Shown here: in pieces, positions 3,927-43,486 of the stretch
How the letters are laid out: each line of letters opens with the position of its first letter
How positions within the stretch are numbered: the stretch's first letter is position 1
Sequence record: ON075799
Direction: 5' to 3' (one strand)
Length of the DNA stretch: 64,000 nucleotides
DNA from: Escherichia phage vB_EcoM_TH18
The notes under the pieces: model-generated
What the model saw: only the letters and a program-made list of their open reading frames with translations
Databases searched by the model: none
Told to the model about the DNA's origin: nothing
Made by a program: the position numbers and the translations under genes

Positions 3927-3936
3927 AAGAATCTCC

Positions 3937-4200
3937 TTATTGGTCTGACTCTTCTCTACGTTGTGATTCTACACCCCAGCGTAGGGATATTAACTTACTT
4001 ATTAACTGTGGAGCAGCCACTGTGGGGGCATACACCCACATATACCACTCCGTTAATGTGCCTTTGAAACCCCAATCTAAAAAAACTGCTGTCATTGCAG
4101 CTAATCCGATATTACTCCAAAATTTAGTGTGGGAGGCCTTTTCTGGATTTACTGGGGATCTGACAAGATCTTTTAAAAATTTCAATATTGATTTTAGCAT
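3937..4200 (-). CDS. Small hypothetical protein, possibly membrane-associated (87 aa)
   Basis: ORF tightly packed between fiber gene and membrane-protein gene; hydrophobic central segment. Confidence 0.3.
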   Translation of the reverse strand: MLKSILKFLKDLVRSPVNPEKASHTKFWSNIGLAAMTAVFLDWGFKGTLTEWYMWVYAPTVAAPQLISKLISLRWGVESQRREESDQ

Positions 4201-4215
4201 AATACATTAGAATCC

Positions 4216-4689
4216 TCAATAATTTACTCCAGGAACAATTCTGGCTATAATTATGAAACCAACAACAACAGAAGTCTCAAGCAATTCTTTTATTGTACCG
4301 CTTTTGTATGCGGCGCATAATAAAAGAACTTCCATAAATGTTGGATATGATGAATTTATCGTGAAGCCTAATGCGTTTGGTAAAATAAATGGGAACTGCA
4401 TAACTAAAATTTGGCAAAACAGAACAGGAAGAGATAGTACAAGCATTAGCTTTTTTCTCCATCCTGTCAAAACACATGCAGTAAAGAAAATCAGAGATAT
4501 ATCAAGGAACCAACAGAAAGTTAGGTAGAGTGACAAGTCAAATGCGTAGATATGGTAACAGAACCACCAGTATAATATATTCTCTGACACGATATGAACC
4601 ATGCCAAATACTGACATGGCTCGGATCCCCTTATCATTATCAAGAAGTAGCACTGCAAAGCATATAAAGTACAGTGCAGAACTTATCAT
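4216..4689 (-). CDS. Multi-pass integral membrane protein (157 aa)
   Basis: Several hydrophobic helices in translation; overlaps upstream ORF by 4 nt (operon coupling). Confidence 0.35.
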   Translation of the reverse strand: MISSALYFICFAVLLLDNDKGIRAMSVFGMVHIVSENILYWWFCYHIYAFDLSLYLTFCWFLDISLIFFTACVLTGWRKKLMLVLSLPVLFCQILVMQFPFILPNALGFTINSSYPTFMEVLLLCAAYKSGTIKELLETSVVVGFIIIARIVPGVNY

Positions 4690-5000
4690 TTCATTTGGCT
4701 CTCTATAAGAATTTTAAGTTGATCTATAAGATCAACTCTCAAACTGCTCACATCCTCTTTTAAATCTTTTCTAAAATCTGAAACATCGTCGCGGACAGCT
4801 TTCAGCTTTTTATCAAGAATCTCATCAAGTTTCTCTTTAGTGACCATCTCTGCCTTAATTCTTATGATGTCCCTATCAAGTTCATCAAGACGTTGTTGTG
4901 TCTTTTTATAGTCTGAGTATGTTAACTTCAGAACACCAACTAAGAAAAACGTCAATACGCCCCATACGGCTTTTAAGATAGCAAATAGGTCAATAGACAT
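4686..5000 (-). CDS. N-terminal transmembrane helix plus coiled-coil protein (104 aa)
   Basis: Hydrophobic N-terminus followed by charged heptad-like region. Confidence 0.35.
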   Translation of the reverse strand: MSIDLFAILKAVWGVLTFFLVGVLKLTYSDYKKTQQRLDELDRDIIRIKAEMVTKEKLDEILDKKLKAVRDDVSDFRKDLKEDVSSLRVDLIDQLKILIESQMK

Positions 5001-5011
5001 TCTTTAGCTCC

Positions 5012-5596
5012 TTAATCAACAGATGGTCTTAGAGGCCACTCTATGTTTGGGGCATCCTCTGTTTTAATGCTTAGTATTTCACAACGATACATCTTCAGTT
5101 TCTTAAGCGTGTCCTCCATGTGTTTCGGTAGTTTTTTACCTGTTACCTGTTCATAGTCCCCATATGTTTGGATATATTGACTTGCCCAAGCAATTTCCTT
5201 ATCCTTGCGGAGTTTTGCTTCCTGTATAGATCGAAAATAGGTATAAGCAAATTCTCCATCTTTAAATGCCACGTCACCGAGGTCATACTCAATGCCTTTA
5301 GGCAAATTTTCTACCGAAACAACGGCTATTTTCCATCCGCTGAAAGGAGTACACCCATCAAAACCTTCATAGCAAACGCAGCAAACCCTATCGTCGAGGT
5401 CCAGCGAAAGAAAGGCATATTTTCCCGGATCTATTTGGGAGTTCAATTCTTCTGCTATTTCATAATAGTCTTTCCCCGTGGATTCTTCGTAGAAAAAAGG
5501 GGCGAAAGGGTTAACTTCCAACAATCTTTTCGTGGCTCCTGTTGCATTATCAGGGAGGGGAGAATAAGGGAAAAATGGTCCAAATATTTTGTTCAT
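5012..5596 (-). CDS. Hypothetical protein (194 aa)
   Basis: ORF in tail fiber block, same strand, short intergenic gaps. Confidence 0.4.
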   Translation of the reverse strand: MNKIFGPFFPYSPLPDNATGATKRLLEVNPFAPFFYEESTGKDYYEIAEELNSQIDPGKYAFLSLDLDDRVCCVCYEGFDGCTPFSGWKIAVVSVENLPKGIEYDLGDVAFKDGEFAYTYFRSIQEAKLRKDKEIAWASQYIQTYGDYEQVTGKKLPKHMEDTLKKLKMYRCEILSIKTEDAPNIEWPLRPSVD

Positions 5597-5613: not shown

Positions 5614-6708
5614 TTACACTCTACTTACGTTGTGCCAGACACCATTAACTTGTTTCTGGATGTATGCATAGTAAACCCCACCAATGTTGTCTGCTGAGTT
5701 TTTACCAACATCTTGAGGATAGATACCTGTCATAACTGCACCCGCTGGCGCTTGCCAGTTCCAAGATATTTCGTTACCACCGGGCCAGTACCATGTGTTA
5801 CCTGTTAATCTAACATCTTGAACACCACCTGTTTGGATATTGACATTGCCGTTACCATCTGCACCAACACCATTAACAGATCTTACGATATTTCTCCCAG
5901 CAACTGTAGCAGAGTTATTATTTACAATTAGTGCATTTACGTTTGCTGTCCCATTAACTCTTGCAGATGGTGTTGTTAATGAGCTTGTTGCTACAACAGT
6001 CTGACCTTGAATTTGTCCTGTAGCCGTCAAAGAGGATGTTCTTGTTGTGGTGAATGTTGCATTTGTGCCATTAACATTTGTTCCTTGTACAGTGCCTGTG
6101 GCAACAACATTTCCTGTTACTTTACACAAAGCCGCTGAGGAGCTAATAGCATTAAGCTCCATCATAGTAAACATCCCAGAGTTACCTGAAGGAGAGAATC
6201 GGAAACGTATAGAATCTACACCGTTTGTCCCTGCTGTTCCTGGATTATCTCCAAGAACAAAATCCCAGTACGTCCAGTCAGAAGCTGGATTCGTAGTTGT
6301 GATATACGCAGTATCTGTTTCAGAAGGTTGAAAATTCAATCTCGGCAATGACAAAGCTCCTGTCATTGTATCTCCCGTTACATTCACGTAACGGTTGTCG
6401 GCTTCTGATCTACTCCACACATCAAGGTTGATTCTGGATGTTTCCTTGTCAGCTAAATCAGACAGATTTTCACTTCTTCTTAAAAATCTTGTATCTAATT
6501 CAGGTATCTGATCTCCTGTAACATATTTTATCCAACTTGTCATCATATAAAGAACATAGTTAAATTCTTCACAAGCTGGTTTTTCTCCCATATCCCAACC
6601 TTTTAACCAAAGATCGTCAATAGGTCTTATTTTATTCTCCCCATGAGTATTAGGGAGAATCACATCTCCCGCTGCCCAAATCTCGATTGGTATACTTGGT
6701 ATAGCCAT
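5614..6708 (-). CDS. Tail fiber protein (364 aa)
   Basis: Gly/Thr/Asn/Val-rich repetitive central region typical of fibrous beta-structure. Confidence 0.5.
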   Translation of the reverse strand: MAIPSIPIEIWAAGDVILPNTHGENKIRPIDDLWLKGWDMGEKPACEEFNYVLYMMTSWIKYVTGDQIPELDTRFLRRSENLSDLADKETSRINLDVWSRSEADNRYVNVTGDTMTGALSLPRLNFQPSETDTAYITTTNPASDWTYWDFVLGDNPGTAGTNGVDSIRFRFSPSGNSGMFTMMELNAISSSAALCKVTGNVVATGTVQGTNVNGTNATFTTTRTSSLTATGQIQGQTVVATSSLTTPSARVNGTANVNALIVNNNSATVAGRNIVRSVNGVGADGNGNVNIQTGGVQDVRLTGNTWYWPGGNEISWNWQAPAGAVMTGIYPQDVGKNSADNIGGVYYAYIQKQVNGVWHNVSRV

Positions 6709-6723
6709 AAAAGTATCTCCTTC

Positions 6724-8787
6724 TTAAACTTCTGGTGGGGTATCTTTTAAATACCCTTTCAATGCTGTATGCCCCATATGAAAGACTGCGGATTGAGAGT
6801 TGTGCACTGTTATAGAATCATGCATTACTTGTGGATACGCCCATATGTATTGATAAATATCTGGAAACTTAAACTCATTAAGAACAATGTTCCCTATAAT
6901 CATTTTCCAAAGATATTCTCTATAATTAGAATTAGGGTCAAATCCGTATAATGGTGCTAGCCCTTCGTCTGGAACAAATCCTGCCAGATAATGTATCTTA
7001 TCTTCTTTAAATTTTAAGACATCTCGCGGAATGGTGATGGCCTGGAATGATTTTTCCATTTTTCCTTGAAGTAACCAGTCATAGCACTCGGAGCAATAGA
7101 AATCAAAATTCTCAGGTGTATAACTACCACTAGGGAAATTTATCTTTTCCATAATACCATTACCAATAATGGATGGTAAGAACGGTAAAAGTGTTATTTT
7201 TGCATTAGGATAAGATTTTTTAAGATCAGCACCGAATTTTACCACTCGCTCTCCTAGACACTGTCTTAGAAAATCTACATACTCATCATAGGGCGTTCCG
7301 GTCTTAAAGTCATAAATTGTTCCCATGTCTTGAGCATACAATCCAGTCTCTTCATTAAAACGCGCTTTTGTAGTATAATCATACACACAAGGTAAATTTG
7401 TAGCAGTATTATACCACCACCAAGGTTCCCCTATCTGAATGATAACAACCTGGTTAACTTGTTCGCATGTGGCTGCTATTTTATTTATTACACTTTGGAT
7501 ATATTGCATACCCTCGTTAATATTAGGTGATAATACCCAACTTGGTGGTGTGTATCCTGTTTCAGCTAATGCATCATTCCAGTCGTGCTGAACCCACTCT
7601 GGAGGACAAACTGTACTCATCAACTCAAAACTAATAGAATTGATAACCTTATAACCATTTGCTCGTGTCAGTGCGAAATAGTTATTCATCCATTGTAGGG
7701 TTGCATTATTGACAGGGACATCTTTGTTCAGTTTCCATGCGGAGCTTTCCCAAGAGAACTCGTAATAATGCGACATACCATTATAGTGATTTATCATATC
7801 TCTATAACCGAGTTTTAAGCAGTTATCCACCACTCTCTCCGGTGTAAGATTATACATATCATCATAAGATGTACACATGCGTATATCATGAGCAGGAATT
7901 GTCAAATTATTAACTCTCATCATTGTATAGCCTGTATCAGGCTCTTTAAGAGTTATTTTCAACATAAGATTCTGATTTTCTTTAGGGACAATATCTTCTC
8001 CTTCTGCATACTTCTCAGATATCATAGAAAAGAAAAACTGATCCACTTGAGAGGTATCCACTGCCACGTCCACATCAGGACCAGATTTTAAATTTGAAAA
8101 ATCAAGTTTGATTGTGGCCCTTTTATAATCCTCGCTGATATCTTCAGCATAAGCGTACAGAGGGATATAATGGGTTGCCCCATCTAAAAGTTTAAGAGTT
8201 AATGTTGGGGTCAATTTCTCATTATTGAAATCAGGCATTCCGTCGCCCAACTCTATATCGAACCACAGTTTAGCGTTTCGAAGGTCTGTGTGATCTTGAA
8301 AAGAGATCCCTTTATGATCATACTTATCTTTTGTGCTCCAAATAACCCCTGCCAGACCACTGACAGTTCTATTAGTCATATAAGCTGTAAGTATATTACC
8401 ATTAGATATTATAGAGCAACTTTCTGTGGGTTGAGAATCAATTGTCCAATATTTAGGTAGAAACATTTTCTCTTCTTTTGTTCCCCATCCCAACTCAGAC
8501 ATGTCCTCCTTGGTGCTAATAACACATCTGGAAGCCAGCCTGTCTAGCCTTGCACCAAAAGACGGGTTACTCATTTTTAAAGTAAATTCCCTTGGTAATG
8601 AGTTTTTAGGATGTTGTTTTATCTCCACAGGTATTTGTACAGACTTTTCCCCTTTAGGAATTGTTGCCGTACCTACCTTGGGTGTGTAATCTCTTCCAGC
8701 AATAGCTGTGTTTGATATTGTTTCATAGTCAAAGCTAACAGCTACAGAGTCATCTTCTCTTCTGGCTGTGAAAATAGCCTCTGCCAT
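6724..8787 (-). CDS. Large tail fiber / baseplate-associated protein (687 aa)
   Basis: Position between baseplate genes and distal fibers; no specific motif recognised. Confidence 0.45.
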   Translation of the reverse strand: MAEAIFTARREDDSVAVSFDYETISNTAIAGRDYTPKVGTATIPKGEKSVQIPVEIKQHPKNSLPREFTLKMSNPSFGARLDRLASRCVISTKEDMSELGWGTKEEKMFLPKYWTIDSQPTESCSIISNGNILTAYMTNRTVSGLAGVIWSTKDKYDHKGISFQDHTDLRNAKLWFDIELGDGMPDFNNEKLTPTLTLKLLDGATHYIPLYAYAEDISEDYKRATIKLDFSNLKSGPDVDVAVDTSQVDQFFFSMISEKYAEGEDIVPKENQNLMLKITLKEPDTGYTMMRVNNLTIPAHDIRMCTSYDDMYNLTPERVVDNCLKLGYRDMINHYNGMSHYYEFSWESSAWKLNKDVPVNNATLQWMNNYFALTRANGYKVINSISFELMSTVCPPEWVQHDWNDALAETGYTPPSWVLSPNINEGMQYIQSVINKIAATCEQVNQVVIIQIGEPWWWYNTATNLPCVYDYTTKARFNEETGLYAQDMGTIYDFKTGTPYDEYVDFLRQCLGERVVKFGADLKKSYPNAKITLLPFLPSIIGNGIMEKINFPSGSYTPENFDFYCSECYDWLLQGKMEKSFQAITIPRDVLKFKEDKIHYLAGFVPDEGLAPLYGFDPNSNYREYLWKMIIGNIVLNEFKFPDIYQYIWAYPQVMHDSITVHNSQSAVFHMGHTALKGYLKDTPPEV

Positions 8788-30217: not shown

Positions 30218-31759
30218 TTAATTCTCTAAATTAGAAACAGAATTATCCCTCACTGTTGATATTTTTGATGTTCCGTTACCTGTTGACCCCGGAGTCATCC
30301 CATCCCCAGAACGACTTACATCCTGACCAAGAATTTGCAACAACTCCTCAAGATCCATATCTTCTGGGATTTCTTCGTCAAAACCACCAACCTCAAGAAT
30401 TTTATTAATAACTGTAGGTGTTTTAGGCAAATATCCAACAGCACCGATACGCTGAACAAATTTAGAGAATCCTTCCATATCAACTTCTTGAATAAGCCCA
30501 GGTTTTAATCTTGGCATATCTTCGTCAGATAATCTTATATCATTCAAAGCAAGAAGTTGGGGTATTAAGTTCTTATTGAACGCCTCGGTAATAATATCAA
30601 TATCTCTCTGGACAAAATGACCATGGATAGTTTGTTTTGATTCTGAAAGATTATAAGATCCCTGCCCGTCGTTACCTAAGTTAATAAACCCAGCACCAAA
30701 GCGATCAAGAATAGCCTTCTTACGAGAATTAACAAGCTCTTGAGTGCTGTATTGTTTACCTGCCCCATCTATCCCTTTGAGAGACATTTCATATTGTTTA
30801 CCACCTTGGTTATTGAGATCAGATGGTAAAATAAAGTAGGCTTGTTCTCCAGCATGTGCGTTAGCAGCATCTGCCATTAGTCCTTGCACCATAGCAGCTT
30901 CTGGTGATGTTGGGTCTATTGCTGCTTTATTAAGGATCTGGGAAGGTATTTTAAGTTCTATGATGCCACCAAGATCTTTAGATGCCCCAATAGTCTCCAA
31001 ATTTTCTATAAGGATCTTCTCTCGGAATGCCCTATAACAACCTACTAACGGTGATACCCCAGCCGGGTTGGATTCCGTACCTCCCAAACTCATTATCATC
31101 AACTTATTAACTGGAATAAAAACATCATCACCATTAGTTAATTTACGGATAATGCTTAAAGTGTCACCTAGCATTCCGTTTTGTAAATTAGAGAAAGCCA
31201 AACTGCTTTGGTTAATGCCCTTCAGCGTCTTGCCATCGGCATCAAATACCCAAGGCTTTGATCTGGAAAGACTGCACTGCGGCCTGAATGCAATTTTATC
31301 AATCGTAATATACCCAGCATACCTTGAAGTATCTGGCTCAGTACGATAAACTTTTTCAAATATCGAAAACCCATACTCATTGAACGTTGCTGCGCTTCTG
31401 GCTATATCACGCAGAGTTTGTTGATTAGCAAGATTCTTCAGTGCATACTCCACAAACTCAGCAGCTTTCTTAGATTTTCTGCTATCTCTGTTATACAAGA
31501 TTTTAAAATCATTGAATGCTTTGGTTACAAAGACATATTTTGTATCAAGGGCTGTGGAAACTGTGTGGTCTTGCTTCATGGCTTCAACAGTGGCGATGAA
31601 ATTAGGCCATCTCAACTCCTTAACTTTCATAATCTCTGATTCAGCCCTAAGTTGAGAAAGAGCACCAGAGCCTAACTCCCCAGTGCGAAGACGACTAACA
31701 GCAAGTCTCTCATTACCTGCTTTAGAAATCTCTTCTTGTTGTGCAAATCTTGTTGACAC
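30218..31759 (-). CDS. Portal protein (513 aa)
   Basis: Size and position immediately downstream of large terminase. Confidence 0.6.
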   Translation of the reverse strand: MSTRFAQQEEISKAGNERLAVSRLRTGELGSGALSQLRAESEIMKVKELRWPNFIATVEAMKQDHTVSTALDTKYVFVTKAFNDFKILYNRDSRKSKKAAEFVEYALKNLANQQTLRDIARSAATFNEYGFSIFEKVYRTEPDTSRYAGYITIDKIAFRPQCSLSRSKPWVFDADGKTLKGINQSSLAFSNLQNGMLGDTLSIIRKLTNGDDVFIPVNKLMIMSLGGTESNPAGVSPLVGCYRAFREKILIENLETIGASKDLGGIIELKIPSQILNKAAIDPTSPEAAMVQGLMADAANAHAGEQAYFILPSDLNNQGGKQYEMSLKGIDGAGKQYSTQELVNSRKKAILDRFGAGFINLGNDGQGSYNLSESKQTIHGHFVQRDIDIITEAFNKNLIPQLLALNDIRLSDEDMPRLKPGLIQEVDMEGFSKFVQRIGAVGYLPKTPTVINKILEVGGFDEEIPEDMDLEELLQILGQDVSRSGDGMTPGSTGNGTSKISTVRDNSVSNLEN

Positions 31760-31774
31760 GAATTATCCCCTCTG

Positions 31775-32560
31775 TTATATTCTTTTATACAAGGTAGGAG
31801 CTACAATTTTTGGAATAACAACAGGTTTGACTATTTCTTCTTTTTCAAGATAATTTATCCCAGAAGAAATGGCGTCGACCCAATCGTCTTTTCTTGTCGT
31901 TGTACTCCTTTCCCCATTGAACTTTTCAAGCTCTGTCATAAGGGCTTCATAAGTTTTAGGATCAAAACTATCACGAACTATTCTCACCATACCTGCTTGA
32001 GCAAGTTTTGCAAAAGGTGTAAATCTTGTTAATTTTGATTTATTGGTTGGTGTAGGATCTTTTTCTACTGTAAATCCTTCCGCTATTAGTTCACGAGAGC
32101 TTGTTAAAAATTCACTTATTCCTGCTTGTCCTGGGTCAACACTGAAAATTATGGTAACATCATCACCATCAAAATAAGCCTGTTTCTTAATGATAACATC
32201 ACGTTCCCCAGCTTTTTTACAGAATCTCCCCTGCGTTTGAGTTGAATATCTACCATCATCAAAAAATTCAGGACAATAATCACCAGACAAATAGTAAAAG
32301 CCATCATTGTCTTTACTTACCTTAACAGATGCTGTAAAGTCAGGATATCTGTTTCCAGATGTTCTTTCTGTACCTGCTTTATCATACGGACGAACAGATA
32401 CAACACCGAGAGGTAAGCAGGGAACCTCTTTTAAATAAGATCTCTGGAAATAGTTTGCCCCTTCAGGTCTTGCGTTCCAGTTTCCATGCAATAACTGGGC
32501 TTTTTCTACCTCTGGAAGACCTTCAAGGAATGCTAGATAATCTGGGTTATTCTCCAGCAT
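31775..32560 (-). CDS. terL: Terminase large subunit, exon 3 (nuclease domain; 5-prime boundary approximate)
   Basis: Open frame continues upstream of the listed Met; acidic motif KDDWVDA near C-terminus; preceded by group I intron core. Confidence 0.6.
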   Translation of the reverse strand: MLENNPDYLAFLEGLPEVEKAQLLHGNWNARPEGANYFQRSYLKEVPCLPLGVVSVRPYDKAGTERTSGNRYPDFTASVKVSKDNDGFYYLSGDYCPEFFDDGRYSTQTQGRFCKKAGERDVIIKKQAYFDGDDVTIIFSVDPGQAGISEFLTSSRELIAEGFTVEKDPTPTNKSKLTRFTPFAKLAQAGMVRIVRDSFDPKTYEALMTELEKFNGERSTTTRKDDWVDAISSGINYLEKEEIVKPVVIPKIVAPTLYKRI

Positions 32561-33575
32561 GGGAGGATTATCGAATCCTTGTATTCAAGGTTGGACGCAA
32601 CGCCAACCCCCGCACCACTACGTGCTGCTGCATGTCACCATGCAGAGTAGACTATATCACCACCCACACATAATGGGTGCTTCGCTTTTCGAACGCCATT
32701 AGCTTGCGATCTACTCCCTTGCGGGATAGTCGTTGAACTACATTACCATTCATAGTTGTTTGAGATATAGATGTAAGTTTTTCTATCTTTTATTCTTCTA
32801 ACAAGATTAAAACTAACACCCCATTTTTTAGATATCTTATTAATGCTTAGGATACCGTCTCTCAGATCTTCACATATCCCTATAACTTTGGATTCACTAA
32901 TTCTGTTGGAAGAAGGAACCATCCTGAAATTAAACTCTTTAGAAATGTCTGGGTAGACTCTCCCAGCTTTGATACTACTAACCACAGTCTGCCCAATACC
33001 AAACATCTCACTGATATCCTTTACTCTAGCACCCTGCTCAAGTAATCTGCATATCTCAAGGGCAGTGTTATCATCAAGAGGCCTGTAACTGTTTACATAA
33101 GACTTCTTAAGCCCTATTTCATGTGCGTGATGTGTGCTTTCCTTTGCAGTTGTCCACTCAAGATTCCACGCTGCGTTATTAAGTTTGTTTCCATCTAAAT
33201 GGTTCACTTGAGTTTTTGTATCAGGGCTATCATTCTCGACAAAAGCAAAAGCAATAACCCTATGGACAAGAACTTGAAACTTTTTACCATCCTCACACAA
33301 CGTTAACATTGCATAGCCAGTTTTCTTATGGACATTAGGATGTAAAAATTTGTGGGAATACAAACTATAAATTCTTCCATCATACGTCGCACAATAATGG
33401 GAATACCCTAAAAATCCTAAATTTTTCATCTCAAACATTCTCCCTACTACAGTTTCGGAAAAGTAATTATAGCTGCTGATTGCCCTTATACAAAGGGTTT
33501 CCCAGCAATTAACGAAGTTATTCGACATGCATTACTGCATGAAGCCACTATTCTTTTAATGGTTGCGGAAATGAA
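32561..33575 (-). mobile_element. Group I intron 2 carrying an HNH homing endonuclease ORF (boundaries approximate)
   Basis: Minus-strand reading shows P-like AAUUGCUGGGAAA, P5 hairpin, Q-like AAUCAGCAGC upstream of ORF, and R-like GUUCAACGACUAUC plus S-like GAUAUAGUCU downstream, giving P7 pairing GACUA/UAGUC. Confidence 0.65.
32743..33438 (-). CDS. HNH homing endonuclease (232 aa from MFEMKNLGF…)
   Basis: Typical N-terminus (KNLGFLGY…YDGRIYS) and HNH motif VNHLDGNKLNNAAWNLEW; SD AGGGAGA upstream of Met; lies inside intron between P/Q and R/S elements. Confidence 0.75.
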   Translation of the reverse strand: MFEMKNLGFLGYSHYCATYDGRIYSLYSHKFLHPNVHKKTGYAMLTLCEDGKKFQVLVHRVIAFAFVENDSPDTKTQVNHLDGNKLNNAAWNLEWTTAKESTHHAHEIGLKKSYVNSYRPLDDNTALEICRLLEQGARVKDISEMFGIGQTVVSSIKAGRVYPDISKEFNFRMVPSSNRISESKVIGICEDLRDGILSINKISKKWGVSFNLVRRIKDRKTYIYISNNYEW

Positions 33576-33914
33576 GGAAAATGAAAGCGGTTTAGGCTTT
33601 CTTTTCTCATCCTTGCCATCCCAATACTTTTCAATTAATTCTTGCTCTGAGTCACCCCAGATAAATTCTCCGTCACGTCTTATAAACCATCTAATCACCC
33701 CATCTCGTTCAGGTATAGGATATCCCTCATCGTCTAAATACCAAGAAATCAACTCCTTAATCTTATGATCTGGATCAGGGTTACAAGAGATAACCATCCT
33801 GCTCGGATATTTAGAGTTTGAACGTAGACGAGATATCAGATAATCTATCTGTGACCATGTGAATTGTGTTCCCTCATCAAAGCCGATGAAGGTATACTGC
33901 AACTTATTGTCCCC
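33572..33914 (-). CDS. terL: Terminase large subunit, exon 2 (Walker B region; boundaries approximate)
   Basis: Hydrophobic stretch ending in FIGFDEGT (Walker B-like), then ISCNP (coupling-motif-like); no ATG start; flanked by intron cores. Confidence 0.6.
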
Positions 33915-34141
33915 TCAGTTCGCTACACTGAGGCGGTGTGCCAAGACACCCGCCACATGTTTCCATGTGGAACAGACTATATCTTCCATCCTTGGCGTGC
34001 CGTTTGGATCACCAATCGCTTGTGATTCTACTCTCCTACACTCATCGGAGATAGTCGTTACACCCAGATTTTATATTTCCATATTCTGTGGCACGGTATT
34101 TTCCCATAGGGAGTTCCACCGTTATAGGCACGAAGGGCAAG
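33903..34141 (-). mobile_element. Group I intron 1, ORF-less (boundaries approximate)
   Basis: Minus-strand reading contains R-like GUGUAACGACUAUC and S-like AAGAUAUAGUCU (near-consensus), several hairpins, no ORF; separates Walker A and Walker B coding segments. Confidence 0.6.
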
Positions 34142-35512
34142 CTATTCACCCTGATGATCTAATTTGTTATTCTCATACTCCATGTGTCTCCACAACACCT
34201 TTGCCCCAGATGGGAAAATTGCTTCCAGAGCTTTCTCCCTGAACTTCGGCTTCCATTCCTTATCGAGTTGCAAATAAATACTTTTTGCTGTATCAAAAAG
34301 CCCACCTGCACCTGTCAATTGAGGTGTTGTCCTACGAAACATTATACATGCTGTCTGCGGGTCATCGACATAAGCAAGCGGCATCAATTGTAGGAGATAT
34401 GATTTTCCACTATTCCCAGTGACAACCACACAATCTTCTAGTCTGGTAACAAAGAAACCTGTTTGTGTTACAAAGCAGTATTTAAACCCATCCGTAGGTA
34501 TAAACTCTTTAAACTCAGCTTTTCTGTCTTTATTAGCCAGTGACCTTAATCCTTTTCCTCTAGCCATAATATTAACAGTATAACTGTCCTTTCCACTTCT
34601 TGTATCATGGTTTATGGTGGTATTATAACCAAGAGAAGATCCTACAAACTGAACAAAATCAGCGTTCATCTTATGGACAGTAAAATATCTACCTGTAAAG
34701 CTGTTATGTGTTTTACCGCCATATGGCTTACAAAAAGAACCATCCCAATGAAAAATCTCATCAAGTATTATCTCCAGTTGTTCATTTGAACACTGATAGT
34801 ATTTCTCTGTAAATTTTTTATCAGGATATTTAGGCCATACAATAACCTCGTACTGTTCCCCAGTGGTATATCTTTCACTGGGTTTTGATCCTCTATCTTC
34901 ATATCTTAATCCAAACTTTTTACAAAGTTCGATTAAGCGGTCATATTTACGCTTTTTAGCAAAGCGCATCTGTGTATAATTATCTTTCCCTTCTTTAACA
35001 ACTCTCCCATCAGCCATGACAGCAACCTGAAGCCGTAATTCCCCTTCTGTCATGTCTATCCCAGGACCATCATAGTTAAATGTAGTTATGAACTTACCTG
35101 TCCAACCTTTTTTAACAGAGTTGTTATGTCTTTCTGCCACTTCAGAAAAAGAAAGTGTTCTTGGCTGTGATTTATAGTCTGGTTTATAAATCACAGTATG
35201 TTCGTCAGATAGCTCTTGACAAATGCCATTACCTTCTATTCTTGTAAGTTTTTCGCAAGGGAGTTTAACAAACTCTAAAGGGGGGATAAATTTAGCCTCC
35301 CCAGTGGCTTTGTCATATTGCAGAATGTCCTGCCCTGACCATTCTGATATCTTAATCCAGCCAGATGGTGTCAACACCTCGTGGTCTTTAGACAAACACC
35401 CGGCGGCCCCACCAATTATTAGAATTTGGGCTTTACTCTCCAAAATCATTTTTTGCTTAGGACTGGCAGGTCCAAATACTTTACTCAAAAGACCTCCATA
35501 TTTTCTATTCAT
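34142..35512 (-). CDS. terL: Terminase large subunit, exon 1 (N-terminal ATPase segment including in-frame intein)
   Basis: N-extein ends IIGGAAG; C-extein resumes SGKSYLL, restoring Walker A GGAAGSGKS. Confidence 0.7.
   Translation of the reverse strand: MNRKYGGLLSKVFGPASPKQKMILESKAQILIIGGAAGCLSKDHEVLTPSGWIKISEWSGQDILQYDKATGEAKFIPPLEFVKLPCEKLTRIEGNGICQELSDEHTVIYKPDYKSQPRTLSFSEVAERHNNSVKKGWTGKFITTFNYDGPGIDMTEGELRLQVAVMADGRVVKEGKDNYTQMRFAKKRKYDRLIELCKKFGLRYEDRGSKPSERYTTGEQYEVIVWPKYPDKKFTEKYYQCSNEQLEIILDEIFHWDGSFCKPYGGKTHNSFTGRYFTVHKMNADFVQFVGSSLGYNTTINHDTRSGKDSYTVNIMARGKGLRSLANKDRKAEFKEFIPTDGFKYCFVTQTGFFVTRLEDCVVVTGNSGKSYLLQLMPLAYVDDPQTACIMFRRTTPQLTGAGGLFDTAKSIYLQLDKEWKPKFREKALEAIFPSGAKVLWRHMEYENNKLDHQGE
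34412..35398 (-). mobile_element. Intein (about 329 aa) inserted in the terminase Walker A P-loop
   Basis: Begins CLSKDHEVLTPSGWIKISEW (intein block A-like), ends …VVTGN followed by Ser; size suggests nested endonuclease, with weak LAGLIDADG-like segments (AVMADGRV, ILDEIFHWDGS). Confidence 0.65.
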
Positions 35513-35583
35513 ACCATAGAGGGTAGTTTACCACGAATAACGATAAAAATAAAGCCCTTATCATTAAATAAGGGCATTGTCAA

Positions 35584-35877
35584 CTATTTATCTGAAGTAA
35601 ATATTGTCTTTACATACTGTTGTAGCGTTCTTAATTTCATACGATCTTCAGCAGCCTTAATGTTGTTTTTCTTGATCACCTCTATAGCATCCGCATTACT
35701 AAGACCACCTGGCAATTTTTCAGGTTCTTTCGGTGGTATCATAGCTTCAGCGGGTGGTCTTGCTAAGATATCGCTTATTATGATCTCTTTTGCAACAGGA
35801 ACAACTCTCTCAGGCGGTGAAGTGCACCCTGTTAACATCAATAATAGAAAAGGAACCATGATGACACACTTTTTCAT
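35584..35877 (-). CDS. o-spanin-like outer-membrane lipoprotein (97 aa)
   Basis: Signal peptide with lipobox-like LTGC, Pro-rich mature part; starts 4 nt inside upstream i-spanin-like gene. Confidence 0.55.
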   Translation of the reverse strand: MKKCVIMVPFLLLMLTGCTSPPERVVPVAKEIIISDILARPPAEAMIPPKEPEKLPGGLSNADAIEVIKKNNIKAAEDRMKLRTLQQYVKTIFTSDK

Positions 35878-37899: not shown

Positions 37900-37975
37900 T
37901 GGTGTGACGGACAGGATTCGAACCTGTGACCACCTAGTCTTCAGCAAGGCACTCTACCAACTGAGTTACCGTCAC
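37900..37975 (-). tRNA. tRNA-Phe (anticodon GAA)
   Basis: Hand-folded cloverleaf: acceptor GUGACGG/CCGUCAC, T-arm ACAGG-UUCGAAU-CCUGU, anticodon loop CUGAAGA, CCA encoded. Confidence 0.75.
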
Positions 37976-37980
37976 ATAAT

Positions 37981-38057
37981 TGGTGGGCGATGAGGGACTC
38001 GAACCCCCAAAATTCAGGTTCTAAGCCTGACATGTATACCAATTCCATCAATCGCCC
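37981..38057 (-). tRNA. tRNA with anticodon UAG (Leu by anticodon) but class I architecture
   Basis: Acceptor GGGCGAU/AUCGCCC, anticodon arm UCAGG-CUUAGAA-CCUGA, 5-nt variable loop, A73, CCA encoded. Confidence 0.6.
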
Positions 38058-38305
38058 ATCTATATTAACAGTTATGGTTTTCCACGATACACAGAAATAG
38101 TTTTCCCATTAGCATTGATAACATAAGCGGTCTGATCCTCAGACAAAAACACTTTTTGATCAATGCCGGAAATAGCTATAGACTTTTGATGAGCACAATA
38201 CCCAACAATTTTCCCACAAAAAATTTGTTCATCATTTGGAGAGACGACTTTAACTGTTAACATGGTATCCTCTGTACATTTCTGCTTTGATATGTTTATG
38301 TTTGT

Positions 38306-38383
38306 TGGTCTGTCCGGTTGGATTTGAACCAACGACCTGGTCATCCCAAGTGACCCGCGCTACCCAAGCTGCGCTACGGACAG
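38306..38383 (-). tRNA. tRNA-Pro (anticodon UGG)
   Basis: Acceptor CUGUCCG/CGGACAG, anticodon loop CUUGGGA, T-arm GUUGG-UUCAAAU-CCAAC. Confidence 0.75.
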
Positions 38384-38467
38384 AGAAATGTAGATTTTAA
38401 TTGTCCCAGAATCTACTAACTGGTATCGCTGGCTAGGTGATATCTGTGACTTGATTAAGTCAAGAAT

Positions 38468-38559
38468 TGGCGGTTCCTGAAGGATTCGAACCTTCGGTGG
38501 GGAGATTCATTCCCAACGGCTTAACAGGCCGTCACCATCGACCACTCGGTCAAAGAACC
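38468..38559 (-). tRNA. Class II (long variable arm) tRNA with anticodon GUU (Asn by anticodon)
   Basis: 92 nt; acceptor GGUUCUU/AGGAACC, D-arm with CCGAGUGG, anticodon arm ACGGC-CUGUUAA-GCCGU, 20-nt variable arm, T-arm GAAGG-UUCGAAU-CCUUC, G73, CCA. Confidence 0.6.
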
Positions 38560-38568
38560 TGAATATTT

Positions 38569-38645
38569 TGGTGGATCTGGTTGGGGTCGAACCAACAATC
38601 TCTCGATTAAAAGTCGAGTGACTTAAACCATTTGGCTACAAATCC
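38569..38645 (-). tRNA. tRNA-Lys (anticodon UUU)
   Basis: Acceptor GGAUUUG/CAGAUCC, anticodon arm CUCGA-CUUUUAA-UCGAG. Confidence 0.75.
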
Positions 38646-38878
38646 GTTAAATTATCTTTAAAATAGCTAATTACTCGCACATAATTAGCTATACGCAACA
38701 ACTCTCCAAGGAGAGCACACTAATGATCGATTACGATTATATGACTAAATTTAGACCATCATAAGTGTTTGGCTTACGCCAGTAAAGAGCGGACTGCTCT
38801 GGGGTATCGGTAAGATGGTTGCAGCCATCTACCGAAAAATCACACCAAGCAACTAAACAAGCTACATTAAAGATAACT

Positions 38879-38967
38879 TGGAGGAGGCTGACAGAATCGA
38901 ACTGTCACCATATCTCTACAGCGGGACTGGGTTCAAACCAGCTTGTGCACCATGCACCCCAGCCTCC
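38879..38967 (-). tRNA. tRNA-Ser (anticodon UGA), class II
   Basis: Acceptor GGAGGCU/AGCCUCC, anticodon arm GCUGG-UUUGAAC-CCAGU, long variable arm, T-arm GACAG-UUCGAUU-CUGUC. Confidence 0.7.
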
Positions 38968-39038
38968 AAAGATAGCCTCTGCCGAGGATATACACCCAAC
39001 AAAGGAGGCGCTCAGGTCAGAAGAAATCTGAGCCTTAA

Positions 39039-39132
39039 TGGAGGAAGATGCCAGACTTGAACTGGCACACCCATTTCTGGGTTACTATCTCCTTAGCAGG
39101 GAGATCCCTTACCAAATTAGGGTTAATCTTCC
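39039..39132 (-). tRNA. tRNA-Ser (anticodon GCU), class II
   Basis: Acceptor GGAAGAU/AUCUUCC, anticodon arm UCUCC-CUGCUAA-GGAGA, long variable arm, T-arm GCCAG-UUCAAGU-CUGGC. Confidence 0.7.
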
Positions 39133-39153
39133 AATACCTTAGTAATTAAAAAC

Positions 39154-39243
39154 TGGTGGAGAAGGAGAGAATCGAACTCTCAAGCCGTTTTACCAGTCAG
39201 CACATTTCCAATGTGCTTTCGTCGCCAATCGATTTGCTTCTCC
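39154..39243 (-). tRNA. tRNA-Ser (anticodon GGA), class II
   Basis: Acceptor GGAGAAG/CUUCUCC, anticodon arm GCACA-UUGGAAA-UGUGC, T-arm GAGAG-UUCGAUU-CUCUC; D-arm irregular. Confidence 0.65.
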
Positions 39244-39252
39244 GTTTTAACT

Positions 39253-39328
39253 TGGCAGGGGATGGTTGATTCGAACAACCGATCACGGGGTCAAAGCCCG
39301 TTGCATTAGGCCACTATGCTAATCCCCT
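39253..39328 (-). tRNA. tRNA-Gln (anticodon UUG)
   Basis: Acceptor AGGGGAU/AUCCCCU, D-stem GCAU/AUGC, anticodon arm ACGGG-CUUUGAC-CCCGU. Confidence 0.75.
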
Positions 39329-39331
39329 TTT

Positions 39332-39409
39332 GCACGAGAGTGAGGAATAGAACCTCTTAGTCACTGGTTTTGGAGGCCAGCCTTCACCCAGTGAAGTTAC
39401 GCTACTCTC
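39332..39409 (-). tRNA. tRNA-like remnant (probable pseudo-tRNA)
   Basis: Acceptor-like GAGAGU/ACUCUC and T-arm-like GAGG-UUCUAUU-CCUC, but no canonical anticodon arm. Confidence 0.2.
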
Positions 39410-39417
39410 ATTAAAAA

Positions 39418-39975
39418 CTATTTTCGAAAAGGACTTATGAAAAATGCCAACATCACTCTCTCTCTTGAAAAAGCTCTGTCTTCAGGAACCACACTCTTCA
39501 GTTTCCAACCGACATAAATTCGCCAGTAAAATTGTTTTCCAAACAATCTAAAAGACGGGACAAACGCGAATACACCCCACGCATTGTCATTCCACATCAA
39601 CAAATAGCCTTGTTGGTTATCCTCCACATCAGAGCTTACATGGAGGTTTCCTTTCCACTTTGTCACAGATGTGATTTCACGTCCAAGTACGTGATAGGAG
39701 AAATTGTAGGCTTTATTTCTCCACAACCAAGCAACTCGTTGTAGGTAAACACCAAAACTTCCTATTTTACGGACTTCTTCCCATCTCTCTATGTGTCCTC
39801 TATCACCGTCTATAGGATTATCATATGTCTCCATCCACCTGAAAATATAAGGCAGATGCCCTGTCTTCTCATTATAGAACGGAACAACAAAAGGAGCCAG
39901 AATAACACAGAGAACCGACATAACTGGGTCAAGAGGTGCTAACAGGATCCACGATAAATATTTTAAGTATCTCAT
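39418..39975 (-). CDS. Hypothetical membrane-associated protein (185 aa) embedded in tRNA cluster
   Basis: Hydrophobic N-terminal helix; Trp-rich. Confidence 0.35.
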   Translation of the reverse strand: MRYLKYLSWILLAPLDPVMSVLCVILAPFVVPFYNEKTGHLPYIFRWMETYDNPIDGDRGHIERWEEVRKIGSFGVYLQRVAWLWRNKAYNFSYHVLGREITSVTKWKGNLHVSSDVEDNQQGYLLMWNDNAWGVFAFVPSFRLFGKQFYWRIYVGWKLKSVVPEDRAFSRERVMLAFFISPFRK

Positions 39976-40327
39976 GCAGGATCAAGCCTAGATATAATGT
40001 ACTGGTTTAAATCTGAATATGGGAAGATACTTTCAAAGATAACCTGTTTAAATCTGAAGCCGCACAAACCGAAAAGTACCTTCTGACACTCACCAAAAGA
40101 GCAATCTTTACCAACTTTTATCACAACCGTATCGGCAATCTGCACACTTTCTATCTCTTTAGATTCATGATGCCGTACTATGATTACTTTAGAAACCATC
40201 ATACTCGTCCATATTAAAGCCTTCTACTAAAGATAGTAGATGTCTAGGGTTGGACCGCAAACGCAACCCCATGGAATTTGTTACGGTCTTCAGTTGACCC
40301 AAGCGGATTTCATTGACATCTTTTAAC

Positions 40328-40402
40328 TGGAGCATCCAGAGGGTATCGAACCCTCGACTTCAGCTTGGAAGGCTGTAGTTTTCCCAATTAAACTATGGAT
40401 GC
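40328..40402 (-). tRNA. tRNA-Gly (anticodon UCC)
   Basis: Acceptor GCAUCCA/UGGAUGC, anticodon loop CUUCCAA, T-arm GAGGG-UUCGAUA-CCCUC. Confidence 0.7.
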
Positions 40403-40407
40403 ATATT

Positions 40408-40483
40408 TGGTGGGAGTGGTAGGCTCTGCCCCTACGTCCTCTCGATTATCGGTCGAGCGATCTACTAACTGATCTACACTCCC
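40408..40483 (-). tRNA. tRNA-shaped gene, anticodon GAU (Ile by anticodon), with non-canonical D-, anticodon- and T-loops
   Basis: All four stems perfectly paired, but T-loop is GGCAGAG (no UUC), D-loop AGUUAGUA lacks GG, anticodon loop CCGAUAA has C33. Confidence 0.55.
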
Positions 40484-40551
40484 AAACTGTACTGGCCCAA
40501 CAACCACGATTGGAGGGTATCGTCACACATCAAAGCCAGTACAGTTTTAGT

Positions 40552-40641
40552 TGGTGTGCCGTGATAGAGTCGAACTACCCGAGTCCCTTTCGAGACAGGA
40601 GATTTACAGTCTCCCCCGCTACCCCTACGGTCTAACGACAC
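40552..40641 (-). tRNA. tRNA-Tyr (anticodon GUA), class II
   Basis: Acceptor GUGUCGU/ACGGCAC, anticodon arm GGAGA-CUGUAAA-UCUCC, long variable arm, A73. Confidence 0.7.
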
Positions 40642-40642
40642 A

Positions 40643-40990
40643 TTAACCTTGTTTGAATTGAACAATATCCGTCGAGAACGGTTTAGCTGCCTTAATAGGT
40701 GCTTTTTCTGAGTTATCTTTTTCGAGTAACTCTTCGTTTTCCTCATCAAAGTAATCAGAAAGCATCTGCTCACCTTTCTCAATAACATAACGAGCTATAT
40801 TTTCTCTGATATTGTCTTTTGTATTCACATTCTTCATCAAATCCCTAAGAACCTGATGAGCTTCAGGAATCATTGCAATCAGATTCGTTTTTAAATCTAG
40901 GATATTTTTCTCTAACTGAATTGCATTAGATTCCTCTTTCAGAGGACGACCTTTTCCTCTTCTACGTTTTGTAAGCTGCTTAGTAGCCAT
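40643..40990 (-). CDS. Hypothetical basic/acidic protein (115 aa from MATKQL…)
   Basis: ORF trimmed to Met downstream of a consensus sigma70 promoter; longer listed ORF would overlap tRNA-Cys. Confidence 0.4.
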   Translation of the reverse strand: MATKQLTKRRRGKGRPLKEESNAIQLEKNILDLKTNLIAMIPEAHQVLRDLMKNVNTKDNIRENIARYVIEKGEQMLSDYFDEENEELLEKDNSEKAPIKAAKPFSTDIVQFKQG

Positions 40991-41009
40991 TTTAAAACCC
41001 CACTTAATG

Positions 41010-41038
41010 ATATTATCAAATAAAAACATATCTGTCAA
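41010..41038 (-). promoter_or_regulatory. Consensus sigma70-like promoter on minus strand (TTGACA, 17-nt spacer, TAATAT)
   Basis: Minus-strand reading TTGACAgatatgtttttatttgaTAATAT, about 20 nt upstream of ATG at 40990. Confidence 0.55.
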
Positions 41039-41075
41039 GTGGTATTTTAACATATTTACCAAGAAATTGAAAGTT

Positions 41076-41152
41076 TGGAGCACGGTGTCGGACTTGAACC
41101 GACATATATCTGTTTTGCAGACAGATCCGTAACCAAATTCCAGCAACCGTGC
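41076..41152 (-). tRNA. tRNA-Cys (anticodon GCA)
   Basis: Acceptor GCACGGU/ACCGUGC, anticodon arm UCUGU-CUGCAAA-ACAGA, T-arm GUCGG-UUCAAGU-CCGAC. Confidence 0.7.
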
Positions 41153-41228
41153 AATAAGTACCCCAGGTAGAGAACCTATAGAGTGGGTCTTACGAGCCGC
41201 GCTGACGATTCTCAAGTTGGGGTTAATC

Positions 41229-41305
41229 TGGTCGAGGAGACAGGATTCGAACCTGTGACCTACGGCTTAGAAGGCCGCTGCTCTATCCAACTGAGCTACA
41301 CCCCG
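41229..41305 (-). tRNA. tRNA-Arg (anticodon UCU)
   Basis: D-arm GCUC-AGUUGGAUA-GAGC, anticodon arm GCGGC-CUUCUAA-GCCGU, T-arm ACAGG-UUCGAAU-CCUGU; acceptor has one U-U mismatch. Confidence 0.7.
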
Positions 41306-41505
41306 AAAATAAGAATGCTTTATAGTGTATGGTTACTCAACCTCACTCCAACTTCCACAGTTGGTGCTCTACGAGCATGACTACGTTTGAAATCAACGTT
41401 GCGCACCGATAGCTTTCTCACGCATTGTATGCCTCATTCCCAACAAATGCTGATCAGACATTTATATCGAATAATATAAGCTAATACACTATAAAACAAA
41501 CTTGT

Positions 41506-41602
41506 GGCTGGGTGATGGAATCGAACCACCTATGTATTCAACGGCTTCCCCGTCTATTTTCAGGATTATAAATCCTCGCCCTTGCCAAAGGGCTTACCCA
41601 GC
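41506..41602 (-). tRNA. Atypical 97-nt tRNA-like gene (possible anticodon UAU) with about 30-nt extra segment
   Basis: Canonical acceptor GCUGGGU/ACCCAGC, D-arm GCCC-UUUGGCAA-GGGC, T-arm GGUGG-UUCGAUU-CCAUC; anticodon region is a 4-bp stem with loop UUUAUAA followed by 30 extra nt; CCA not encoded. Confidence 0.35.
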
Positions 41603-41604
41603 AT

Positions 41605-41679
41605 TGGTGCTCGCAGCAGGTTTCGAACCTGCAACCCCCTGCTTACAAGGCAGGTGCTCTACCGTTGAGCTATACGAGC
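41605..41679 (-). tRNA. tRNA-Thr (anticodon UGU)
   Basis: Acceptor GCUCGUA/UGCGAGC, anticodon arm CCUGC-CUUGUAA-GCAGG, T-arm GCAGG-UUCGAAA-CCUGC. Confidence 0.75.
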
Positions 41680-42044
41680 AATAAGACATTGCTTCCGATT
41701 AACAGCCTTGAGGCTTTACAGACCATATCTTGTGAGCCATAACCTGTGCCAAGGATTTCAGATGATAAACGAAATTTTATCTTTCAAGAGTCAACTTTCA
41801 AGTTTCATCTTTTACATTTAACCATTGACCTTTATTGTATGAACTTTTACTTAGTGGAAACAACAAGGCATCTTCGTGTGCCTCGCTGCATCTATGTCCT
41901 GTATTATCCTCATACATATACGATACATGGTGGGGGATATTTAACCTCCAACCCCCAGGAGGCAAGATGATGTAAACTTCGTTAATCAAAAGCAATGTTT
42001 TAAATTTCAAAACAAAGGAACGATAATGATATTATCAGAGCCTT

Positions 42045-42692
42045 TTAGAGAGAGTGCTCAATCTCAATTTCTGTCTTAGCGTTTGACTCAGACAACGCAA
42101 AATCAACGTTAGACAAGAAATCTTCAATCTCTTCTTCAAGAGAACGAATCTTAGAAGCCAGTTCAAGAGGATCCACAACCGATGGTGTGTTCATCATTCG
42201 AATAGGAGCTTCCACAGTCTTAATCTGCTCTGCATCTGGCGCTTTATCACGTTGGATATATGGCGCTCTTGCATTTTCAAGTTTATCTTCCAGAGATTTT
42301 TCTTCTTTTGCCAGAAGAAGCTGTGCAGAAGCACGCTGTGCACAAAGTTTGTTTAACAACTCTTGTTTAAAGCAAATCGTCCGTTTGCGTTCGATTGCCT
42401 CAGCAACTGTCATAGACACATTACCAATTTTGACAATTGTCTCAGCATTAGACTTAACAATTTTTGCTTTCAGTTCATCACGCACTGCCAAGAGGTCTTG
42501 CAGACTTTGATAGTCGTTGATCGCAGATTTCTTAAAATCATCAACAGAGCCGATATAACCCGGAATCTTACAATTATTCTCAGTTCCTTTTGCAATCTTA
42601 ATACAATCAAGATTGTAGATACGCTTATTGATCTTATCTTCAATTTTAGAGATAGAAGCAAGTGCACGAGTTACGGAAATCTTAGTAGACAT
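42045..42692 (-). CDS. Hypothetical protein (215 aa)
   Basis: ORF with coiled-coil-like charged regions. Confidence 0.4.
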   Translation of the reverse strand: MSTKISVTRALASISKIEDKINKRIYNLDCIKIAKGTENNCKIPGYIGSVDDFKKSAINDYQSLQDLLAVRDELKAKIVKSNAETIVKIGNVSMTVAEAIERKRTICFKQELLNKLCAQRASAQLLLAKEEKSLEDKLENARAPYIQRDKAPDAEQIKTVEAPIRMMNTPSVVDPLELASKIRSLEEEIEDFLSNVDFALSESNAKTEIEIEHSL

Positions 42693-43033
42693 GCGATCTC
42701 TCCTATGTAAATCAGCTTTGATAAAGTAACTATCCAGAAAAACAAAAACTATGTCAAGAAAAATTTTAATCTTTTACAGCATCTTTTATAGAATCACAAA
42801 GATCTTGAACAACATCAGATGTCGGTGACAAAATCATCTCGTCGGCTGCTGCTATAGCATCTGATGCTAAATCAACAAACGGAGTTGTTACCGCAGAAGT
42901 CACTTCAACAGCCGTTATTGTTACTTCGCTTGCAATCTTAAGCAAAGATCCTATCATAATCTCAACCCTCCTGAATATCCGTGATTCCCTTTATTTAACG
43001 ACGCTGGCTCACGGTGGCACTCTCGTCAATAAA

Positions 43034-43357
43034 CTATTTTTTAGTTTTCTTACCGTTTTCTACAGAAATGCTTGTTTTCTGTTTCGCTTCTCGTTCGCGC
43101 TTTGTTTTCCCAGTGCGAATACGATATGAAGCAGAAATAACTTCACCACCAATGACACGAGACACAGATTCGTAATACATTTCAGTATTACCGTCTTCAT
43201 CTTTGCGTTTTTTCAGAACTGCTACAGTTTGCGTTTTACCACCAAGGCGCACATCGTGCGGTGCAGAATGTGTCTGCGTGGATTTTGATCCAAACTGAAA
43301 AGGTTGCTTTATCGCCTCGATAGCTGACACCTTTTTAGCAGACTGTTTCTTAGCCAT
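43034..43357 (-). CDS. Hypothetical basic protein (about 107 aa from MAKKQSAKK…)
   Basis: Lys/Arg-rich small protein. Confidence 0.4.
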   Translation of the reverse strand: MAKKQSAKKVSAIEAIKQPFQFGSKSTQTHSAPHDVRLGGKTQTVAVLKKRKDEDGNTEMYYESVSRVIGGEVISASYRIRTGKTKREREAKQKTSISVENGKKTKK

Positions 43358-43409
43358 TAAGTTTTCTCCTCCGAAAACAATAAACATAGTTTATTTCGTG
43401 TGCCACATT

Positions 43410-43486
43410 TGGTGGCCCCTGCTGGACTTGAACCAGCGACCAAGCGATTATGAGTCACCTGCTCTATCCAACTGAGCTAAGGGGCC
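43410..43486 (-). tRNA. tRNA-Met (anticodon CAU; elongator-type or lysidine-modified Ile2 not distinguishable)
   Basis: Acceptor GGCCCCU/AGGGGCC with G1-C72, anticodon loop CUCAUAA, T-arm GCUGG-UUCAAGU-CCAGC. Confidence 0.75.

Follow-up and report, generated by a model that had tools for sequence, protein, structure and literature searches.

Interrupted layout of the terminase large subunit gene

The gene for the large terminase subunit (TerL) on the minus strand of the 64-kb window (the whole stretch of 64,000 nucleotides of phage DNA that was analyzed) is broken between its Walker A and Walker B segments, which raises the question of whether the intervening DNA is a spacer between two genes or an intron within one. 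An original prediction, made from the sequence alone, had favored a self-splicing group I intron, and the ORF-less gap on which it was built is present as described. The upstream terminase ORF terminates at TAG (34144-34142) and the Walker B segment begins at 33902, with Walker A (GGAAG...SGKS, which is interrupted in its turn by an intein-like insert) lying upstream and Walker B (FIGFDE) downstream.

In a 3.9-kb region surrounding this gap (31700-35600), the window shows 100% identity with Escherichia phages 18-1-2, 19-1-2, and 24-2-1, members of Avunavirus within the Vequintavirinae. The GenBank records of these three phages split TerL into three CDSs, each called "terminase large subunit," next to an "HNH homing endonuclease," and none of them annotates an intron in TerL.

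Three minus-strand exons were delineated. Exon 1 (34148-35512), which includes a 329-amino acid intein-like insert, and exon 2 (33559-33902), which reads LQYTFIGFDEG...SATI and contains Walker B, were assigned from translations and from colinearity with TerL of the Salmonella phage PVP-SE1. Exon 3 (32576-31775) was assigned from the ORF listing and its translation. A second interruption, containing an HNH ORF, separates exon 2 from exon 3; the exon 2 ORF continues into this second intron, where it terminates in non-homologous residues. Removal of the intein-like insert and both introns yields a TerL product of 507 amino acids, which gave a single continuous Terminase_6N match (residues 32-289, profile positions 1-213 of 215) and a Terminase_6C match as well. 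A search of PDB sequences with the spliced TerL as query returned nothing at E values up to 0.01.

In the Rfam run at gathering thresholds, a cluster of 13 tRNA genes was observed upstream of the terminase region (37903-43486, minus strand). Annotated tRNA genes occupy the same position in phage rV5, upstream of its spanin and terminase genes.

Boundaries of the 245-nucleotide element

The extent of the element is given by Av-05, the type phage of Avunavirus, in which the same site is empty. The Av-05 sequence aligns (98.4%) up to position 34148 and resumes at 33902, such that exactly 245 nucleotides (34147-33903, minus strand) are missing, and its reading frame runs uninterrupted across the empty site (...KLDHQG/LQYTFIGFDEG, KLDHQGLQYTFIGFDEG; here and below, a slash within a peptide marks an intron site). 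The boundary cannot slide because the flanking bases differ from the terminal bases of the intron, which places the 5′ splice site between 34148 and 34147 and the intron-terminal G at 33903. This comparison demonstrates, at the level of sequence, both the boundaries of the element and its presence/absence polymorphism. The extent originally proposed, ∼240 nucleotides at 33903-34141, was thus correct at its 33903 end, but the element starts six bases earlier, at 34147.

The insertion splits TerL after the Gly codon of ...LDHQG and before the Leu codon of LQYTFIGFDEG, at a distance of seven codons from the Walker B aspartate, which lies downstream. Removal of the 245 nucleotides joins the exons in frame and restores the conserved TerL sequence; the in-frame GAA TAG that follows the 5′ splice site is intron sequence rather than exon. 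All 499 residues of the intron-free PVP-SE1 TerL are colinear with the phage protein in four blocks, with residues 118/119 falling at HQG/LQY. Of the 1307 phage records that contain a homologue of the junction region, 1175 match 80% or more of the query at a single location.

The element encodes no homing endonuclease. The only same-strand ORF of at least 30 amino acids that overlaps it (34042-34149, 35 amino acids, GTG start) was not read as a gene because its start lies in exon 1, from where it runs across the 5′ splice site into the core helices.

These boundaries bear directly on the alternative of a truly split terminase, in which a Walker A fragment would end at TAG 34142, a Walker B fragment would start at TTG 33902, and the 245 nucleotides would be a spacer. 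Such an arrangement corresponds to the three separate "terminase large subunit" CDSs in GenBank, whose annotators chose the TTG that opens the Walker B segment as a start, and this codon is preceded by a Shine-Dalgarno-like GAGGGG 8 nucleotides upstream. However, in homologues without the interruption this TTG corresponds to a conserved Leu codon, that of LQYTF, and the GAGGGG bases form the 3′ side of the P9.2 stem described below. The absence of the element from Av-05 is exact and in frame, the exon 2 ORF extends into intron 2 with a non-homologous end, and the supposed spacer is a complete group I core (E ∼5e-37 by an independent model). Taken together, a split terminase is judged extremely unlikely. 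The earlier statement that the Walker B segment lacks a start codon needs correction, the TTG at 33902 being a possible start.

Predicted fold of the intron

The element can be folded into a group I structure, in which intron base 1 corresponds to 34147 and all features lie on the minus strand. The minimum free energy (MFE) of the 245-nucleotide RNA is −78.5 kcal/mol (z = −2.9; 0 of 200 shuffled sequences were as stable), in keeping with the several stable hairpins noted at the outset, and the MFE fold recovers P3, P4, P5, P6, P7.1, P7.2, P9, P9.1, and P9.2.

P1, read from the sequence, consists of 5 bp between the end of the 5′ exon, AGGGU (34148-34152), and an internal guide, GCCCU (34134-34138), located nine bases into the intron. 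The last U of the exon pairs with the G of the guide, giving a U·G wobble at the 5′ splice site. P2 is absent, P3 starting one base after P1. The 5′ strand of P3, CGUGCC (34127-34132, intron 16-21), pairs with GGCACG (34001-33996, intron 147-152). In the MFE fold, P4 (ACGGUG/UACCGU, intron 26-31/50-55) encloses P5 (UCCC/GGGA with a UAU loop, intron 36-39/43-46), both within 34093-34122, and is followed by a P6, P6a, and P6b hairpin with a GAAA loop (34062-34092, intron 56-86).

The R and S elements quoted in the original prediction were both recovered as given. The R element, GUGUAACGACUAUC (34063-34050), comprises J6/7 and the 5′ strand of P7 and is invariant in nine related introns, and the S element, AAGAUAUAGUCU (33985-33974), comprises J8/7 and the 3′ strand of P7. 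Within them, GACUA (34056-34052) is complementary to UAGUC (33979-33975), forming P7 (intron 92-96/169-173) as had been proposed. Two copies of the pattern AACGACTA-N50-80-GATATAGTC are present in the 64-kb window, each within a terminase interruption, and none appeared in 100 dinucleotide-preserving shuffles.

Two additional hairpins lie between P7 and the 3′ strand of P3. P7.1 (CUCC/GGAG, 34033-34050, intron 98-115) is replaced by CCCC/GGGG or ACCG/CGGU in relatives, and P7.2 (GAAUCAC/GUGAUCC with loop AAGCGAUUG, 34006-34028, intron 120-142) contains one A·C mismatch. Extra hairpins P7.1 and P7.2 are a hallmark of T4-type phage introns. P8 is minimal, with 3 bp (CCA/UGG) and a 4-nucleotide loop (33986-33995, intron 153-162). 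The 3′ part of the MFE fold consists of P9 with a GAAA loop (intron 178-195), P9.1 (intron 196-214), and P9.2 (intron 215-235), which together span 33913-33970 and are followed by a 10-nucleotide tail, GGACAAUAAG. P10 is weak, only ∼2 bp being found on inspection by eye. In a helix table compiled by hand, all helices of the window intron are canonical save for the single A·C in P7.2.

Covariance models and comparative support

The Rfam covariance search that had been put forward as a check did not pass its curated threshold. At the gathering threshold, Rfam reported only the 13 tRNAs and no match at the 245-nucleotide element; in E-value mode, RF00028 (Intron_gpI) matched at 34.5 bits (E = 1.4e-6), compared with a curated threshold of 50, and no other Rfam family matched the element. 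The RF00028 alignment forces P1/P2 into the exon and treats P7.1/P7.2 as a 50-nucleotide insertion. Similar scores were obtained for HNH-containing introns, namely 35.2 bits for that of rV5 and 31.6 bits for the one in this window. The threshold is a database cut-off and not a biological criterion, and compact phage introns of this type are missed by the general Rfam model when it is applied.

A dedicated covariance model (R1) served as an independent measure. R1 derives from an alignment of eight relatives, namely the introns of XT18 and of five IMG/VR contigs, the HY03 nrdD intron, and rV5 intron 1, with endonuclease ORFs located in P6 removed and the window sequence left out. It matched the window at 33951-34136 with 131.6 bits (E = 4.9e-37), over the full length of the model and with every modelled helix paired.

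Covariation was assessed in alignments of these introns. When nine introns were aligned with MAFFT (A2), variation in P8 length caused the 3′ strand of the window intron's P3 to be misplaced; the hand helix table and a model-guided alignment of five ORF-free cores (A5) were therefore used. In A5, which is fitted to the model and so favors the model's structure, 89.4% of cells pair, as compared with 33-38% when partners are slid by 1-3 columns, and 28 pairs are changed on both sides; the observed values were reached in 0 of 500 shuffles. Among the five introns, P3, P4, P5, and P9 are 100% paired; both partners differ in four of the six pairs of P3 and in six of the seven pairs of P9, and P4 and P5 show compensatory changes. 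Pairing in P7.2 is 96.7%. Both P7.1 and P7.2 covary across relatives. The hand helix table, which is independent of A5, contains seven different complementary P3 sequences among nine introns. P7 (GACUA/UAGUC) is invariant in the relatives and is thus supported by conservation rather than covariation, and P6a, which is 46.7% paired across relatives, is a single-sequence fold with no comparative support. Overall, nine helices are supported by covariation.

Some other type of insertion (a miniature transposable element, a group II intron, or a repeat, for example) might resemble a group I intron by chance, but beyond the sub-threshold Rfam score nothing specific recommends this idea. Chance alone would not be expected to produce the R/S pair, the element matched no Rfam family other than RF00028, and the R1 match and the covariation in nine helices effectively refute the idea, to which we attach a negligible probability. 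The element instead displays a P3-P8/P4-P6 core, a P7 pseudoknot formed from R and S, a U·G at the 5′ site, a terminal G, and a restored frame, and these comparisons of sequences demonstrate its fold and its membership of the group I family. Together with the empty site in Av-05, the P3-P9 core, and the R1 match, they bear out the group I reading with which the analysis began.

Relationship to known phage introns

A blastn search with the intron as query gave partial matches to the T4-like nrdD intron of many phages and to an intron in the primase/helicase gene of the Kuravirus phages vB-EcoP-XT18 (XT18) and XT73, the latter being the closest sequence relative found. The XT18 intron is 74% identical to the window intron over 116 nucleotides (the P7-P9 core) and 75.5% identical over a 49-nucleotide 5′ part (P1-P5), and it shares a GGGU/...GCCC P1 and a short P5 with a UAU loop. 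It differs in residing in another gene of another phage family and in carrying an HNH ORF of ∼500 nucleotides in the P6 loop; the corresponding part of the window intron is a 24-nucleotide hairpin. The T4-like HY03 nrdD (sunY) intron has a homologous P7, P7.1, P7.2, P3′, P8, and P9 core (72% identity over 105 nucleotides) and, like the other aligned relatives, lacks P2, but it interrupts an anaerobic ribonucleotide reductase gene and carries its endonuclease ORF downstream of P9. On this evidence from sequence, the window intron is placed in the phage lineage that includes the T4-type nrdD (sunY) intron. With P7.1/P7.2 and core homology to an accepted member, it has the features of the IA2 type, the formal subgroup label resting on the literature.

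Within terminase genes, the most instructive comparison is with rV5, whose terminase gene was reported in 2013 to carry introns (Kropinski et al., PMC3606486) and is given in GenBank as a join of three pieces. The gene and the subfamily (Vequintavirinae) are the same as here, as are a core with P7.1/P7.2 and an identical GACUA/UAGUC P7, and the first rV5 intron is likewise ORF-less and without P2. That intron, however, follows FDEG/, at a site 33 nucleotides (11 codons) further downstream; its P5 bears a long extension, only the conserved core blocks are common to it and the window intron, and megablast detected no similarity between the two.

Group I introns interrupt terminase genes more widely, as in Lactobacillus phage LL-H. 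TerL of the related Pectobacterium phage CB7 contains an HNH-carrying group I intron, the splicing of which was shown by RT-PCR (PMC7344957), and Bastillevirinae TerL genes can contain two or three introns with experimentally shown splicing (PMC11878797). This kind of element, and introns in rV5-like terminase genes, are thus already known; what is new is the insertion site HQG/LQY, the occurrence of this intron lineage in TerL, and its unannotated status.

Predicted splicing of the TerL message

TerL is essential. Because it must be intact, we infer that the RNA is spliced, and the minus-strand element at 34147-33903 is very probably an ORF-less 245-nucleotide group I intron that is removed from the TerL pre-mRNA. 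In the proposed mechanism, P1 would arise through pairing of the guide GCCCU with AGGGU at the end of the exon and would place the U·G wobble at the cleavage site, and the core of P3-P9 with P7.1/P7.2 and without P2 would bind guanosine at P7. Self-splicing would then follow the standard guanosine-initiated pathway, in which two transesterifications would release an intron ending in G at 33903 and the exons would be ligated as CAUCAGGGU/UUGCAGUAU (predicted junction, also written CATCAGGGT/TTGCAGTAT). Only the spliced message would encode an intact packaging ATPase, for which a junction-spanning tryptic peptide, LDHQGLQYTFIGFDEGTQFTWSQIDYLISR, is predicted; translation of the unspliced message would terminate at the TAG, two codons beyond the 5′ splice site.

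A group I intron by descent could also have decayed or become dependent on protein, such that self-splicing is lost and the gene is either defective or in need of help. The minimal P8, weak P10, absent P2, and low Rfam score are all compatible with such decay. So is the report that some Bastillevirinae group I introns are spliced only in vivo (PMC11878797), for which reason self-splicing in vitro is not guaranteed here either. In opposition to this, all core helices are intact, as are the invariant P7, J6/7, and J8/7, and P2 is likewise missing from the aligned relatives, including HY03 nrdD. Moreover, the intron has been kept within an essential gene in three isolates and in a metagenome contig (L061), the changes in the latter being confined to loops or a bulge. 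A decayed or factor-dependent intron is accordingly considered very unlikely, and an active self-splicing intron remains the preferred reading.

Intein-like insert and second TerL intron

Two other interruptions of the same gene were observed. The 329-amino acid intein-like insert lies in the Walker A loop (34412-35398, minus strand; GGAAG/CLSKDHEV...VVVTGN/SGKS) and contains two LAGLIDADG-like motifs. Neither its sole Pfam match (LAGLIDADG_3, E = 0.068) nor its best intein match in a PDB search (E = 0.38) was significant, and its central part could not be aligned with the shorter insert present at the same site in Av-05 and L061. Inteins are already known in TerL (PMC7886860).

The second group I intron is 982 nucleotides long (32577-33558, minus strand) and separates ...SATI from FDNPP.... 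Its 5′ splice site follows CCAU, which is paired with GUGG, and its terminal G is at 32577. The endonuclease ORF within it (33429-32743) combines HNH_3 with a helix-turn-helix, the 3′ part of its core scored 83 bits with model R1, and the intron is homologous to intron 2 of rV5.

Site occupancy and independent occurrence

Three intron sites (HQG/LQY, FDEG/, and ATI/F) were compared among five TerL genes. In this phage, HQG/LQY is occupied, FDEG/ is empty, and ATI/F is occupied by the intron with an HNH ORF. L061 has introns at HQG/LQY and FDEG/ and an empty ATI/F site. HQG/LQY is empty in both Av-05 and rV5, which have FDEG/ and ATI/F occupied, the latter without an ORF in Av-05 and with an HNH ORF in rV5. 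All three sites are empty in PVP-SE1.

L061, a metagenome contig of 20.5 kb identified by a pattern scan of contigs, contains the same intron at the same site with 98.8% identity, its three substitutions being placed by eye in the P6a bulge and the P9.1 loop. A group I intron of the Av-05/rV5 type follows after FDEG/, 33 nucleotides downstream of the first, and the 33-nucleotide micro-exon between the two encodes LQYTFIGFDEG, the Walker B motif; this arrangement occupies 6500-7260 (minus strand) of the contig. The neighbors of the 245-nucleotide element differ in L061; the element is therefore a discrete unit whose presence is independent of them. As judged from these sequences, the intron behaves as though gained and lost independently of the neighboring intein and introns.

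As the intron encodes no endonuclease, it would presumably spread when co-infecting phages recombine or undergo co-conversion, perhaps with help from an endonuclease supplied in trans. Dependence on the HNH endonuclease of intron 2 for co-conversion was considered and is not obligatory, since L061 has the intron without intron 2. In Av-05, identity is lower in the 32 nucleotides between the alternative intron sites (87.5%) than in the upstream exon (98.4%), a pattern that fits an exchange of short flanking tracts without amounting to proof of it.

Several further observations were made on related loci. The Av-05 record (NC_025830; loci L003 and L004) has, near its ends, exon 2 and the intron 2 core inverted relative to exons 1 and 3, with breakpoints at palindromic P9 hairpins common to both introns; the arrangement stems either from an assembly error or from a genuine inversion, which would disrupt the TerL gene. 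Intron 2 of Av-05 lacks an HNH ORF. Five separate intron-model matches fall within ∼2.2 kb of contig L009 (IMGVR_UViG_3300028603_000078, 3015-5171), which suggests several group I introns tightly packed in one region. In contig L027 (2556-3844), a TerL relative with 52% identity matches only to about residue 133 of the query and is directly followed by two intron-model matches, an indication that this terminase family has a further intron site. Metagenome contig L044 (1-1370) matches intron nucleotides 1-80 exactly and then continues into an opposite-strand ORF of 309 amino acids, which appears hydrolase-like by eye (GGFSAGG motif); it was judged probably to be a chimeric assembly and was not used. 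TerL relatives in IMG/VR amounted to only 10 loci, two of which are Av-05 itself, too few for a survey of occupancy.

A more speculative reading is that the Walker B stretch of Avunavirus is a contested landing zone, in which two unrelated ORF-less introns 33 nucleotides apart, alternative or stacked, act as "immunity" insertions against homing endonucleases. We regard this as unlikely. If true, the 33-nucleotide micro-exon with the catalytic motif in the stacked form must be spliced twice, and splicing efficiency or exon skipping could gate the production of active terminase late in infection.

Under the preferred reading of a group I intron in TerL, one essential gene has been split into three CDSs in three GenBank phage genomes, and the true 507-amino acid TerL appears only after removal of the intein-like insert and two introns. 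HQG/LQY is an additional intron site in a gene family already known for introns. The resulting allele series, in which Av-05 and PVP-SE1 have a vacant site, this phage carries the intron, and L061 carries it beside a second intron, may be used to study the spread and persistence of endonuclease-free introns in lytic phages.
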